DNA of 64,000 bases, taken from NCBI RefSeq assembly GCF_054482595.1, contig NZ_CM137008.1; one strand, given 5' to 3'. Every line of letters starts with the position of its first letter. Positions within the stretch are counted from its first letter, which is position 1. A program made the position numbers and the translations under genes. The notes below the pieces were generated by a model. It was not told the origin of the DNA. It did not search any database and saw only the letters and a list, made by a program, of their open reading frames with translations. This document shows positions 13,545 to 55,790 of the stretch, in pieces.

Positions 13545-16136
13545 ATGCATCAATCTGGTTCTGTTTCTCTTTGTCGTTCCGCAATATCTGTTCTGGTGGC
13601 TACAGCGTTATATTCACCCATAGCATTGGCATCAACAGTTGAGTATGGTGAGACAGTTGATGGTGTTGTCCTGGAAAAAGATATCCAGCTGGTTTATGGG
13701 ACCGCCAATAATACGAAAATCAATCCTGGCGGAGAACAGCATATTAAAGAATTTGGTATAAGTAGTAATACTGAAATTAACGGCGGGTATCAGTACATTG
13801 AAATGAATGGCACCGCAGAATACTCCGTATTAAATGATGGTTATCAAATTGTTCAAATGGGTGGCGCGGCAAACCAGACTACCCTCAATAATGGTGTGCT
13901 ACAGGTTTATGGCGCAGCGAATGATCCCACGATTAAAGGCGGGCGCTTAATCGTTGAAAAAGATGGGATTACCGTCCTTGCCGCTATCGAAAAGGGAGGA
14001 TTACTGGAGGTTAAAGAGGGGGGATTAGCGATTGCGGTAGATCAGAAAGCAGGCGGTGCTATTAAAGCAACCACGCGGGTCATGGAGGTATTCGGAACAA
14101 ACCGTCTCGGTCAGTTCGATATCAAGAATGGAATTGCAAACAATATGCTGTTGGAAAACGGCGGAAGTTTGCGAGTTGAAGAAAATGACTTCGCTTATAA
14201 TACTACTGTAGATAGTGGCGGCTTACTGGAGGTTATGGATGGCGGGACTGCAACTGGCGTTGATAAAAAAGCAGGCGGAAAATTAATTGTCTCAACGAAT
14301 GCGCTGGAAGTGAGTGGTACAAACAGTAAAGGCCAATTTAGTATAAAAGATGGTGTGTCAAAAAATTATGAACTGGATGATGGTTCCGGGCTTATTGTTA
14401 TGGAGGACACGCAGGCCATTGACACTATCCTTGATGAGCATGCCACTATGCAATCGCTGGGAAAGGATACTGGTACGAGAGTGCAGGCAAATGCGGTATA
14501 TGATCTCGGTCGATCAGATCAGAATGGAAGTATAACGTATTCCTCTAAAGCCATCTCTGAAAATATGGTTATCAACAATGGCCGCGCTAACGTCTGGGCT
14601 GGCACAATGGTTAACGTTTCAGTCAGAGGGAATGATGGCATTCTTGAGGTCATGAAGCCGCAAATAAATTATGCACCCGCAATGTTGGTGGGTAAGGTAG
14701 TGGTTTCTGAGGGCGCTTCTTTTAGAACGCATGGTGCCGTGGATACCAGCAAAGCGGACGTTTCGCTCGAAAATAGCGTATGGACCATCATTGCCGATAT
14801 CACTACGACGAACCAAAACACCCTCCTCAACTTAGCCAACCTTGCGATGTCTGACGCAAATGTGATTATGATGGATGAGCCAGTGACTCGTTCATCAGTG
14901 ACGGCAAGTGCGGAAAATTTCATTACGTTGACCACCAATACCCTGTCGGGAAACGGCAATTTTTATATGCGTACCGATATGGCTAATCATCAGAGCGATC
15001 AGCTCAACGTCACCGGTCAGGCAACAGGTGATTTCAAAATATTCGTGACGGACACCGGTGCCAGCCCGGCAGCAGGAGATAGCCTTACACTGGTAACAAC
15101 GGGCGGCGGTGATGCTGCATTTACGTTGGGCAATGCCGGAGGCGTTGTTGATATCGGTACGTATGAATATACCTTGCTGGATAATGGTAACCATAGCTGG
15201 AGTCTGGCAGAGAATCGCGCGCAAATTACCCCTTCAACCACTGATGTGCTGAATATGGCGGCCGCACAACCGCTGGTATTTGATGCAGAACTGGACACCG
15301 TGCGTGAGCGTCTTGGTAGCGTAAAAGGCGTTAGTTACGATACGGCGATGTGGAGTTCGGCAATTAACACCCGCAACAACGTGACCACTGATGCGGGAGC
15401 TGGTTTTGAGCAAACATTGACGGGCCTGACGCTCGGTATCGATAGCCGTTTCTCCCGTGAAGAAAGCAGCACAATTCGCGGCTTGTTCTTTGGTTACTCT
15501 CATTCTGATATTGGTTTTGATCGCGGCGGAAAAGGTAATATCGATAGCTATACCCTGGGGGCTTATGCCGGTTGGGAGCATCAGAACGGTGCCTATGTTG
15601 ATGGGGTGGTGAAAGTTGACCGTTTTGCCAACACCATCCATGGCAAGATGAGTAATGGGACAACAGCGTTTGGCGATTACAATAGTAACGGCGCGGGTGC
15701 TCATGTTGAGAGCGGGTTCCGTTGGGTTGACGGATTGTGGAGTGTTAGACCCTATCTGGCCTTTACCGGCTTTACCACAGATGGTCAGGACTACACGTTA
15801 TCAAACGGCATGCGCGCGGACGTGGGAAATACCCGGATATTACGCGCTGAAGCGGGAACGGCGGTAAGCTATCACATGGACCTGCAAAACGGTACGACGC
15901 TGGAACCCTGGCTGAAAGCCGCCGTACGTCAGGAATACGCCGATTCTAACCAGGTGAAAGTTAATGACGATGGCAAATTTAATAATGATGTGGCTGGAAC
16001 CCGTGGCGTTTATCAGGCTGGGATAAGGTCATCGTTTACCCCGACGTTAAGCGGTCATTTGTCAGTCAGCTATGGCAATGGCGCAGGGGTAGAATCGCCG
16101 TGGAATACTCAGGCGGGTGTGGTCTGGACGTTCTGA
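13545..16136 (+). CDS. yejO: Autotransporter adhesin YejO (intact)
   Basis: 863-aa ORF with signal peptide, repetitive passenger domain and C-terminal beta-barrel ending in W-T-F; recognised as yejO. Confidence 0.85.
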   Translation: MHQSGSVSLCRSAISVLVATALYSPIALASTVEYGETVDGVVLEKDIQLVYGTANNTKINPGGEQHIKEFGISSNTEINGGYQYIEMNGTAEYSVLNDGYQIVQMGGAANQTTLNNGVLQVYGAANDPTIKGGRLIVEKDGITVLAAIEKGGLLEVKEGGLAIAVDQKAGGAIKATTRVMEVFGTNRLGQFDIKNGIANNMLLENGGSLRVEENDFAYNTTVDSGGLLEVMDGGTATGVDKKAGGKLIVSTNALEVSGTNSKGQFSIKDGVSKNYELDDGSGLIVMEDTQAIDTILDEHATMQSLGKDTGTRVQANAVYDLGRSDQNGSITYSSKAISENMVINNGRANVWAGTMVNVSVRGNDGILEVMKPQINYAPAMLVGKVVVSEGASFRTHGAVDTSKADVSLENSVWTIIADITTTNQNTLLNLANLAMSDANVIMMDEPVTRSSVTASAENFITLTTNTLSGNGNFYMRTDMANHQSDQLNVTGQATGDFKIFVTDTGASPAAGDSLTLVTTGGGDAAFTLGNAGGVVDIGTYEYTLLDNGNHSWSLAENRAQITPSTTDVLNMAAAQPLVFDAELDTVRERLGSVKGVSYDTAMWSSAINTRNNVTTDAGAGFEQTLTGLTLGIDSRFSREESSTIRGLFFGYSHSDIGFDRGGKGNIDSYTLGAYAGWEHQNGAYVDGVVKVDRFANTIHGKMSNGTTAFGDYNSNGAGAHVESGFRWVDGLWSVRPYLAFTGFTTDGQDYTLSNGMRADVGNTRILRAEAGTAVSYHMDLQNGTTLEPWLKAAVRQEYADSNQVKVNDDGKFNNDVAGTRGVYQAGIRSSFTPTLSGHLSVSYGNGAGVESPWNTQAGVVWTF

Positions 16137-16228: not shown

Positions 16229-16285
16229 GGGATTTTTGGTCGGCACGAGAGGATTTGAACCTCCGACCCCCGACACCCCATGACG
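16229..16285. repeat. attL: 57-bp direct repeat containing the displaced 3' 48 nt of tRNA-Pro
   Basis: Identical base-for-base to 55706..55762; positions 16237..16284 are the reverse complement of the tRNA-Pro 3' end including CCA. Confidence 0.85.
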
Positions 16286-22851: not shown

Positions 22852-23415
22852 ATGAGGCTAATCGTGGGTAAGCATCACTGGAAAATAGAAAAACAGCCTG
22901 AGTGGTACATGAAAGCTGTCAGAAAAACTATCGCGGCGTTGCCGGGTGGTTACGCTGAAGCCGCTGACTGGCTGGATGTAACAGAGAACGCATTATTTAA
23001 CCGCCTTCGTGCCGATGGCGATCAGATTTTCCCGCTGGGATGGGCAATGATTTTGCAACGTGCTGGTGGAACTCACTTCATTGCTGATGCTGTGGCGCAG
23101 TCTGCAAATGGCGTCTTTGTGTCTCTTCCTGACGTCGAGGATGTGGACAACGCCGATATTAACCAGCGTCTGCTGGAAGTCATTGAACAGATTGGCAGTT
23201 ATTCAAAACAGATTCGTTCAGCAATCGAAGACGGTGTAGTGGAACCGCATGAGAAGACAGCAATTAATGACGAGCTGTACCTCTCAATTTCGAAGCTGCA
23301 GGAGCATGCAGCACTGGTCTACAAAATTTTTTGCATTTCAGAAAGTAATGACGCCCGCGAGTGTGCAGCTCCGGGCGCCGTGGCGTGTCGTGACTGTGGA
23401 GAAACTAACGCATGA
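22852..23415 (+). CDS. Phage early regulatory protein (CII-like position; family uncertain)
   Basis: 187-aa ORF immediately after cro, coupled (ATGA) to the next ORF; possible GTG start at 22864 with GAGG RBS. Confidence 0.45.
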
Positions 23416-23750
23416 ACAGTTTAACAACACATTACCGTCGCTCGCAACTGATTGCACTTCCTGTACCGGGTGGAAAAGCGAAGGTGGAGTATTGCTATGC
23501 AGTGAATGTACCAGGTGACAGGGAAATTGTAACCCACAGCTTTGCAGAGTGGGCTGTGGGCGATTTCAACCGGCAAAAGGAGACAGTCCTTTGCGACAAG
23601 TTAACCGCTGGTTCAAAGATCACTACGGAGTGCCCGTCAGAGTCATTCGTTGGGAGCCGGAAACACAACGGGTTATCTACCTCCGCGAAGGCTATGAGCA
23701 TGAGTGCTTCAGCCCGCTCGAACAGTTTCGTCGTAAATTCAGGGAAATAG
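23412..23750 (+). CDS. Hypothetical phage protein (possibly frameshifted with 23549..23770)
   Basis: ORF start coupled to the upstream gene (ATGA overlap); C-terminal half is low-complexity and overlaps a more protein-like ORF in another frame. Confidence 0.3.
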
Positions 23751-23770
23751 AGGTCGGTCATGAGCACTAA
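23549..23770 (+). CDS. Hypothetical phage protein
   Basis: 73-aa ORF whose stop overlaps the start of the replication gene; globular-looking sequence ([33 protein letters not shown]). Confidence 0.35.
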
Positions 23771-24701
23771 ATTAACCGGCTATGTATGGGATGGTTGCGC
23801 TGCGTCAGGCATGAAGTTATCCAGCGTGGCAATTATGGCCCGCCTGGCTGATTTCAGTAATGACGAAGGTGTGTGCTGGCCATCAATTGAAACCATTGCC
23901 CGCCAGATTGGCGCGGGGATGAGCACCGTCAGAACGGCTATCGCACGGCTGGAAGCAGAAGGCTGGTTAACTCGTAAGGCGCGTCGCCAGGGTAACCGCA
24001 ATGCGTCGAATGTTTATCAGCTTAACGTTGCGAAGCTTCAGGCAGCGGCATTTTCTCAACTGTCAGATTCTGACCCGTCAAAATCTGACGCATCAAAATC
24101 TGACCCGTCAAAATTTGATGCGTCGAAATCTGGCAAAAAAGCGGGTTTTCACCCGTCAGAATCTGGCGGGGATCCGTCAGTAAAATCAAAACATGATCCG
24201 TCAGATAAAAAAAACTCTCGTCCGGACGCTTCGCAACCGGACACGCAGATGGATGAACAGGATTTTTTAACTCGCCATCCTGATGCGGTTGTATTCAGCC
24301 CTAAAAAGCGCCAGTGGGGGACGCAGGATGATTTGACCTGCGCACAGTGGCTCTGGAAAAAAATCATCGCCCTGTACGAGCAGGCTGCCGAATGTGACGG
24401 CGAGGTGGTTCGTCCCAAAGAACCGAACTGGACAGCCTGGGCAAACGAAATTCGCCTGATGTGTGTGCAGGATGGTCGTACTCACAAACAAATCTGCGAG
24501 ATGTACAGCCGCGTCAGCCGCGATCCGTTCTGGTGCCGTAACGTGCTCAGCCCGTCGAAGCTGCGGGAAAAATGGGATGAGCTTTCCCTGCGCTTATCGC
24601 CGTCCGTAAGCACGTACACCGAAAAACGCGAAGACCCGTACTTCAAATCCAGTTACGACAACGTGGACTACAGCCAGATCCCGGCAGGATTCAGGGGGTG
24701 A
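23760..24701 (+). CDS. Phage replication initiation protein (N-terminal HTH, central SKSD repeat linker, DnaT-like C-terminus)
   Basis: 313 aa; N-terminal winged-helix-like region (IARQIGAGMSTVRTAIARLEAEGWL); repeat peptide DPSKSDASKSDPSKFDASKSG encoded by DNA iterons; position equivalent to lambda O. Confidence 0.7.
   Translation: MSTKLTGYVWDGCAASGMKLSSVAIMARLADFSNDEGVCWPSIETIARQIGAGMSTVRTAIARLEAEGWLTRKARRQGNRNASNVYQLNVAKLQAAAFSQLSDSDPSKSDASKSDPSKFDASKSGKKAGFHPSESGGDPSVKSKHDPSDKKNSRPDASQPDTQMDEQDFLTRHPDAVVFSPKKRQWGTQDDLTCAQWLWKKIIALYEQAAECDGEVVRPKEPNWTAWANEIRLMCVQDGRTHKQICEMYSRVSRDPFWCRNVLSPSKLREKWDELSLRLSPSVSTYTEKREDPYFKSSYDNVDYSQIPAGFRG
24069..24128. repeat. Four tandem 15-bp iterons (TCTGACNCNTCAAAA) inside the replication gene, putative ori
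   Basis: Direct repeats, each with internal dyad GTCA-AAAT-CTGAC, followed by further CCGTCAG motifs and an A-rich tract; same layout as lambda ori inside O. Confidence 0.55.
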
Positions 24702-25192
24702 TCATGAGTCTTTTGAATGACGTTCAGAAATTCATTGAAGCCCATCCGGGGTGTACTTCCGGAGACATTGCGGATGCTTTTGCTGGTTACTCACGGCAGC
24801 GCGTTCTGCAGTCAGCAAGCAAGTTACGTCAGAGTGGGCGTGTGGCTCACCGTTGTGAAGGGGATACACGCAGACATTTCCCGCGCCTGACTGAGAGAGC
24901 GCAGGAACTGGAACCACAACCAGTTCGAGAAACCAGATCTGTGCGCAATTTCTATGTCGGCACTAACGATCCCCGGGTGATTTTGTGCCTGACCCGCCAG
25001 GCTGAAAAACTGGAGTCCAGGGGCTTATACCGTCGTGCTGCAACGGTGTGGATGGCGGCATTCCGTGAAAGCCACTCCCAGCCAGAACGAAACAATTTTC
25101 TGGCGCGTCGTGAGCAGTGTTTACGGAAAAGCAGCAAGCGCGCTGTATCGAGTGATGAGTGGTATCTGTCAGGGAATTACGTGGGGGCGTAA
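24698..25192 (+). CDS. Hypothetical phage protein, possibly PerC/Pch-like regulator
   Basis: 164 aa; motif AEKLESRGLYRRAATVWMAA resembles the PerC-family signature as I recall it; low certainty. Confidence 0.4.
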   Translation: MIMSLLNDVQKFIEAHPGCTSGDIADAFAGYSRQRVLQSASKLRQSGRVAHRCEGDTRRHFPRLTERAQELEPQPVRETRSVRNFYVGTNDPRVILCLTRQAEKLESRGLYRRAATVWMAAFRESHSQPERNNFLARREQCLRKSSKRAVSSDEWYLSGNYVGA

Positions 25193-55705: not shown

Positions 55706-55762
55706 GGGATTTTTGGTCGGCACGAGAGGATTTGAACCTCCGACCCCCGACACCCCATGACG
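55706..55762. repeat. attR: 57-bp direct repeat (overlaps 3' part of intact proL)
   Basis: Identical to 16229..16285. Confidence 0.85.
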
Positions 55763-55790
55763 GTGCGCTACCAGGCTGCGCTACGTGCCG
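55714..55790 (-). tRNA. proL: tRNA-Pro (anticodon GGG)
   Basis: 77 nt; reverse complement reads CGGCACGTAGCGCAGCCTGGTAGCGCACCGTCATGGGGTGTCGGGGGTCGGAGGTTCAAATCCTCTCGTGCCGACCA with T-loop GGTTCAAATCC and CCA end. Confidence 0.92.

Follow-up and report, generated by a model that had tools for sequence, protein, structure and literature searches.

Tandem 15-bp dyad repeats inside an initiator gene as the likely replication origin of a lambdoid prophage

The locus described here raises the question of whether a short array of repeats lying inside a protein-coding gene serves only the peptide that it encodes, or whether its DNA is also a site at which replication starts. The array is found in the replication initiator gene of a prophage carried by a stretch of 64,000 nucleotides (hereafter the window, to which all positions refer) from contig NZ_CM137008.1 of the NCBI RefSeq assembly GCF_054482595.1. 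An original prediction, made from the letters of the sequence, had proposed that it is a replication origin whose iterons are embedded in the initiator gene. Our analysis leads us to conclude that the array is very probably the origin from which a lambdoid prophage of 39.5 kb (SfII/SfIV/e14-like) replicates, placed inside the linker-coding part of the initiator gene, and, judged by its architecture, a lambda-style intragenic origin is the best reading of it. A search of the literature retrieved no description or test of the origin of the SfII/SfIV/e14-like group, and the paper on SfIV lists a 'replication module' with no origin.

The repeat array is real and stands far above chance level. All four 15-mers quoted in the original prediction were located at 24069-24128, and Tandem Repeats Finder (TRF) reported a repeat at 24069-24132 with a period of 15, 4.3 copies, 81% matches and the consensus TCTGACCCGTCAAAA, which was the sole tandem repeat with a score of at least 50 over the whole window. 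Set in the register NNN TCA RAW TCT GAN, the array consists of five abutting 15-bp units starting at 24060, 24075, 24090, 24105 and 24120, followed by a detached sixth unit, and is thus slightly bigger than had been proposed. The sixth unit is identical in phiNP and near-identical in the Klebsiella and Flotzy alleles. Conservation is highest in a 13-bp dyad, GTCA-N5-TGAC, present once in every unit, which bears out the internal symmetry ascribed to the repeats; successive dyads are set apart by 2 variable bases that fall inside the first (spacer) codon of the unit. A degenerate dyad motif, RTCARAWYYTGRY, gave six forward-strand matches in the 64 kb, all six of them being the units, and no copy of the 15-mer consensus with up to 3 mismatches was found in the window beyond 24060-24170. 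The additional CCGTCAG motifs and the A-rich tract announced by the prediction were recovered as well, the former three times (24153, 24174 and 24198) and the latter as GATAAAAAAAACT at 24204-24216. A terminator-like hairpin (CGGGTGAAAACCCG then CTTTTTTGCC) was also noticed on the minus strand at 24142-24155, between units five and six; its stem is not conserved in the phiNP or Klebsiella alleles.

The units are in frame with the open reading frame (ORF) 23760-24701, and the encoded peptide includes SDSDPSKSDASKSDPSKFDASKSG. That this ORF encodes a replication initiator, as had been supposed, was confirmed by a match to PHROG 391 ('replication initiation O-like') with an E-value of 2.8e-135, in which residues 1-313 align with profile positions 1-298 of 298, and by the Pfam domain HTH_36 at residues 23-70 (E 4e-11, 42.9 bits for a cut-off of 25). 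The Pfam scan of the initiator matched HTH_36, GntR and similar families, with no Phage_rep_O (PF04492) and no Rep_3. In public records the protein is labelled 'helix-turn-helix domain-containing protein', 'replication protein O' or 'primosomal protein'. At the protein level it shares 98% identity with the 'replication protein' found in SfII and SfIV of Shigella and in several phages of E. coli, and of 5426 complete E. coli genomes, 2723 contain the gene or parts of it.

An AlphaFold2 (AF2) model of the initiator was built on 30 relatives. Residues 1-99 form a winged helix of H-H-H-H-E-E topology, with a predicted local distance difference test (pLDDT) score of 73-92; residues 103-163, which correspond to positions 24066-24248, are unstructured (pLDDT <50); and residues 166-278 form a helical domain followed by a floppy tail. 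Comparison of the full model with the PDB by Foldseek gave weak winged-helix matches only, of the MarR type, and none for the C-domain. The units (24060-24167) occupy residues 101-136 and, together with the A-rich tract, code in this model for a predicted disordered linker joining the winged-helix and helical domains. Both the in-frame translation and the model thereby agree with the earlier proposal of an SKSD linker between an N-terminal DNA-binding domain and a C-terminal domain.

Such an array could be a mere flexible, low-complexity Ser/Asp/Lys linker grown by replication slippage, the DNA repeat being a by-product with no role in cis. The peptide is indeed repetitive, of the form (xSKSD)n, and predicted by AF2 to be disordered, and the number of whole units changes among close alleles, as expected from slippage: E. 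coli alleles encode 308, 313, 318, 323 or 325 amino acids, and near-identical Klebsiella alleles contain 3 to 7 units. To weigh this explanation, the homologues with related N-domains (59-100% amino-acid identity) were compared; they come from E. coli, Citrobacter, Klebsiella and Yersinia phages, phiP27, a Stx2a phage and EKP1, and all of them retain 15-bp units in frame, with TCA RAW TCT GA as their core. In a codon alignment of eight lineages, in which the residues conserved in at least 6 lineages were scored, the identical-codon fraction of sequence pairs was 0.80 in the linker (26 columns) versus 0.41 in the N-domain (65 columns; Mann-Whitney p=4.7e-9). When the window was compared with each of its seven partners, the fraction ranged from 0.68 to 0.96 in the linker and from 0.35 to 0.58 in the N-domain, the linker being higher in all seven. 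Linker serines are encoded by TCA (64) or TCT (42) in 106 of 119 cases, whereas those of the N-domain use all six codons. The first codon of the unit varies freely in nucleotide and in amino acid (CCG, GCA, GCG, ACA, ACG, GCC, GGG, CAA, TGT and others). This spacer codon also holds 6 of the 11 segregating sites of the units among 60 near-identical E. coli alleles from IMG/VR, a scan that gave near-identical alleles only and is fit for copy-number polymorphism, not for divergence.

That synonymous sites are kept twice as well in the linker as in the adjoining folded domain, with the serine codons fixed as TCA or TCT, points to a function at the DNA level. Moreover, the residues of the spacer codon (P/A/T/G/Q/C) and of the fourth codon (S/F/I/T/N/P) vary while the nucleotide dyad stays, which is the opposite of the pattern expected from a constraint on the peptide only. 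The alignments thus indicate that the DNA of the repeats is under constraint beyond the peptide that it encodes, and we consider a by-product of linker growth very unlikely. In the first of the two half-units that follow the sixth unit (24171-24180), the codons GAT, CCG and TCA are the same in 8, 7 and 6, respectively, of the lineages that have the residue. Two GATC sites, one in each half-unit (24171-24174 and 24195-24198), were also seen to be invariant across all eight lineages. Among the homologues, the record OM284015.1, 'Elizabethkingia phage EKP1' (locus L096), contains an enterobacterial-type module with a DUF4222 gene and an initiator of 61% N-domain identity with like units, and Elizabethkingia looks doubtful as its host.

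The sequence of the repeats co-varies with the N-domain, since initiators with related N-domains keep the TCARAWTCTGA core whereas those of SfV and mEp460_4F5 differ. The latter has an unrelated N-domain and the same C-domain from position 24216 on (homology starting at query position 457); at the equivalent place it carries about four 23-bp dyad repeats (CATCGGGTCAAAGTGACCTGATG) followed by three A-rich 12-bp repeats. SfV, whose N-domain is also unrelated and which has only the last 76 bp of the gene in common, carries there three copies at a spacing of about 24 bp (reported as a 39-nt family beginning GTGCAGGAGATTCACTAGGGGGTAGTGC). The Min27 initiator is SfV-like and was grouped with these unrelated-N-domain initiators bearing a different array at the equivalent place. 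In phiNP, homology runs through N-domain, units and A-rich tract as far as 24238 (query position 479), after which comes a different C-domain (Phg_2220_C). The mosaic breakpoints fall at 24216-24238, to the right of the A+T-rich stretch, in the junction encoding SRPDASQP. Their position, together with the C-domain switch of phiNP, shows that N-domain, repeats and A+T-rich stretch constitute one specificity module and the C-domain another. The C-domain family shows the consensus SCPxASQPD, and the junction S(R/C)P(D/V)ASQP, which joins various C-domains to various N-domain/origin modules, looks like a recombination linker. A few alleles were found to be truncated by frameshift directly after the repeats.

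Conserved DNA may of course be read by something other than an initiator, and an overlapping gene, a structured RNA, a Dam/SeqA-controlled element or a recombination hotspot for module exchange were considered. ORFs in other frames do span the repeats, at 24001-24183 on the plus strand and 24022-24189 on the minus strand, but they are broken in several homologues; an overlapping gene behind the synonymous conservation was rejected, the alternative-frame ORFs hitting stops in phiNP, YeP1, phiP27 and Stx2_KH16. As single-stranded DNA the array gives a strong fold (z -6.0 and -5.4), but this stability is an automatic outcome of tandem dyads, and no Rfam family matched at the array. The mosaic breakpoints adjoin the array but are situated in the conserved SRPDASQP junction, outside the units. 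Even with the two invariant GATC sites counted in their favour, we regard these other uses of the conserved DNA as most improbable.

To the right of the units lies an A+T-rich, A-skewed stretch (24179-24218), which is a candidate DNA-unwinding element. It contains a run of eight A at 24207-24214 and shows an AT skew of +0.43, with an excess of A on the top strand. This stretch has the lowest GC content of the initiator gene and is its least stable 40-mer; within the 3-kb early region it comes third in instability, after the cI-cro and cro-cII intergenic regions, and over the whole window it is among the top 3.6%. The units could then be initiator-binding sites for autoregulation or copy control (titration/handcuffing), with unwinding and helicase loading taking place elsewhere in the phage. 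Plasmid iterons are known for such dual roles in replication and control, and the modest A+T-richness of the stretch would suit this explanation too. However, the unit has no further copy in the 64 kb, so that no second site is on offer, and the other very A+T-rich spots nearby, namely the two intergenic regions, are devoid of repeats. In addition, the A+T-rich stretch is inherited together with the units in all homologues. Sites devoted to control alone are in our opinion unlikely, and a replication origin remains the preferred reading of the array.

The activity of such an origin, as we infer it from the arrangement of these elements, would begin with derepression of the prophage, followed by rightward early transcription and production of the initiator. 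Its N-terminal winged-helix domain would bind the 13-bp dyads in the units, the five in tandem as well as the sixth, and in both half-units, and the bound initiator would build a nucleoprotein complex resembling the lambda O-some. The ensuing strain, perhaps aided by transcription through the gene, would open the A+T-rich stretch. The C-terminal domain and its DnaT-like tail would presumably recruit the host helicase-loading machinery (DnaB/DnaC, possibly via PriA), a role presumed because no phage helicase or loader gene lies nearby.

Several points weigh against the array being an origin. The literature searched contained no report of binding, unwinding or origin activity in this initiator family. 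The 15-bp spacing, equivalent to 1.4 helical turns, is unlike that of the ~20-bp iterons of lambda, and the A+T-rich stretch, besides being short and no more than 70% A+T, is broken by a half-unit that contains GC. Searches for a perfect DnaA box (in 23400-24800) and for a perfect IHF site found neither and gave one-mismatch matches only. As to the conservation of the linker, that between the window and phiNP may partly correspond to a more recent shared ancestry of the segment, and the codon counts are not independent because an array consists of repeated copies.

Plasmid records, considered as a natural proof of autonomous replication, gave 18 matches, in which the phage-sized 'plasmids' look like circular phage genomes. 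One of them, CP085522.1 (locus L099), is a 41.5-kb circular 'plasmid' with no replicon type that carries the initiator, its array being intact and the rest full of indels; it is probably a circular phage genome. As evidence of autonomous replication it was dropped, the indel-ridden sequence being uninformative.

The gene is also present in the serotype-converting Shigella phages SfII and SfIV, with relatives in Klebsiella, Citrobacter and Yersinia. A defined cis element would serve the building or curing of prophages and the reading of induction and marker-frequency data, and would help to predict the replication incompatibility of co-resident prophages.

Table 1. Positions of the candidate origin elements and of the parts of the initiator gene in the window.
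Feature	Position	Strand	Sequence or remark	Basis
Five tandem units (iterons)	24060-24134	.	CTGTCAGATTCTGAC / CCGTCAAAATCTGAC / GCATCAAAATCTGAC / CCGTCAAAATTTGAT / GCGTCGAAATCTGGC	TRF, motif count
Sixth unit, detached	24153-24167	.	CCGTCAGAATCTGGC	motif match at 24155
Half-unit with GATC site	24171-24180	.	GATCCGTCAG	
Second half-unit with GATC site	24195-24204	.	GATCCGTCAG	
A+T-rich, A-skewed stretch, candidate DNA-unwinding element	24179-24218	.		30% GC over 40 bp
Replication initiator gene	23760-24701	+	313 aa	ORF, PHROG 391
N-terminal winged-helix DNA-binding domain, presumed iteron reader	23760-24056	+	aa 1-99	HTH_36, AF2
Conserved junction, site of C-domain mosaic exchange	24216-24238	+	encodes SRPDASQP	homology breakpoints
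Helical C-terminal domain, presumed replisome-recruiting	24255-24593	+	aa 166-278	
C-terminal tail	24672-24698	+	SQIPAGFRG	matches C-terminus of host DnaT
Tail pair	initiator, window 24672-24698; DnaT, locus L091, 79-618	DnaT, -		

The likeness to lambda ori claimed in the original prediction holds for the intragenic location, the dyad repeats and the adjacent A+T-rich stretch. In ori-lambda, the repeats are likewise inside the initiator gene, in the linker part between the DNA-binding N-domain and the C-domain; there are likewise several direct repeats, each symmetric within itself, and after them a stretch that is A+T-rich and strand-asymmetric, and in lambda too the number of iterons varies among relatives and the N-domain and iterons are swapped as one unit (PMC7466680; PMC8022706). 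The iteron count is 4 in lambda and 6 in Stx phages (PMC7466680). The likeness does not extend to the proteins. Unlike lambda O, the initiator studied here is an HTH_36 winged helix, and its C-domain is unrelated and ends with a DnaT-like tail; there is no P gene. By its sequence it is outside the lambda O/P protein families, because it has no Phage_rep_O domain and no P/DnaC/DnaB-type neighbour. The units also differ, being 15 bp long and directly abutting, whereas lambda iterons are ~19 bp long at 20-24-bp spacing, and the A+T-rich stretch is modest beside that of lambda.

Other phages were compared in the same way. Gene 18 of P22 and gene 18 of phage L likewise encode distant O-type initiators with their own repeat family in the coding region, but in P22 and L the partner of the initiator is a DnaB-type helicase encoded by the phage itself (gp12), whereas this phage encodes none. 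An intragenic origin is established for lambda and P22, that of phage L having been deduced from its sequence, in which six imperfect 11-bp repeats occur (PMC8022706). The Bacillus phage SPP1, with G38P/oriL and the G39P loader, is among the closest known systems. Related HTH initiators are present in several of the 'Eru' non-lambda Stx-phage regions (Llarena 2021, PMC8044961; PMC8951638): the N-domains of Min27 and Stx2a_F403 (Eru5) are 43% identical to that of the present initiator, and Stx2a_WGPS2 (Eru6) has the last 76 bp of the gene in common, tail included. The Eru types are defined by two genes beside cI and not by origins, and Eru1-3 possess helicase or primase genes (PMC8044961; PMC8951638); replication of the non-lambda Eru modules is stated to be unstudied, with no origin described (PMC8951638).

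Iteron plasmids (pSC101, R6K, F and P1; Rep_3-type) likewise combine a winged-helix initiator, tandem iterons and an A+T-rich stretch. In these plasmids, however, the iterons are not part of the rep gene, and DnaA boxes are usually found with them. Judged from its sequence features, the present array is not an iteron-plasmid replicon: the initiator lacks a Rep_3 domain, the gene itself holds the repeats, and no perfect DnaA box is present.

The C-terminus of the initiator resembles that of E. coli DnaT (primosomal protein I). The initiator ends with DYSQIPAGFRG and DnaT with DSQIPPGFRG, 8 of 9 residues being identical at both C-termini by BLASTP. The peptides are near-identical, but only the last ~20 residues of the proteins align: comparison of the C-domain family profile with DnaT by hhalign covered the last 20 columns only (E 3.7e-5). 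Some family members end with ISEPDTEIPPGFRG, compared with VSEPDSQIPPGFRG for DnaT. No homology to the globular domains of DnaT, N-terminal or C-terminal, was detected (no PDB or Pfam DnaT match, and no DnaT among 140 sequence relatives). The likeness of the tail may be the reason for the 'primosomal protein I' label in some public records.

The same tail is borne by three unrelated initiator C-domains. In a survey of 16 loci (including L001-L003, L084-L089 and L092-L097), none of the 11 tail-bearing initiators had a helicase, loader or primase gene nearby, whereas such a gene accompanied four of the five tail-less ones, YeP1 being the exception (Fisher p=0.003 for 16 loci whose lineages are not independent). 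Among the tail-less initiators, those of phiP27 and Stx2_KH16-043 are accompanied by DnaC-like and DnaB-like genes, and those of EKP1 and Min27 by Toprim or DnaB-like proteins. The 'P27' of Kozlowska 2020, with its lambda-type O, is distinct from the phiP27 HTH protein. The Min27 'P' protein (locus L089, 3324-5210), which contains Toprim and lies beside the initiator, was found to match also the Hint and LAGLIDADG families, which suggests that it carries an intein.

Tentatively, the peptide shared with DnaT (D-x-x-IP-x-GFRG) might be a portable docking motif, through which 'solo' initiators would hijack host helicase loading via DnaB/DnaC or via the PriA surface used by DnaT. If true, this would explain why such phages can do without a loader or helicase gene, and it would make the tail of DnaT itself a functional contact within the restart primosome. 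Two papers on DnaT (PMC11087952; PMC13377028) report docking of its C-domain on PriA by way of a conserved hydrophobic surface, and describe as unknown how a preprimosome that contains DnaT brings in DnaB/DnaC. Iterons within an O-like gene being a textbook concept, the DnaT-like tail alone could bear on an open question; we present it as a lead and not as a result.

The prophage is ~39.5 kb long and is flanked by exact direct repeats of 57 bp at 16229-16285 and 55706-55762. The right repeat overlaps a tRNA-Pro(GGG) gene (55714-55790, minus strand), the prophage being inserted at the 3' end of this tRNA gene. The early-right operon contains, in this order, the genes for a cI-like repressor, cro, a cII-like protein, DUF4222, the initiator, a PerC-like protein (yfdN) and a protein with a LexA DNA-binding domain, followed by RusA, KilA-N, DUF968, Q, the lysis genes and the terminase. 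No P-, DnaC- or DnaB-like gene was found downstream of the initiator or nearby, and a promoter scan gave no convincing sigma-70 site near the candidate origin. In many relatives, a Dam-type methylase gene is present directly after the initiator or one gene further on; there is none at that place in this prophage. Finally, a second integrase-like gene (~14795-16030) is located directly to the left of the left 57-bp repeat, which suggests a tandem island at the same tRNA-Pro.

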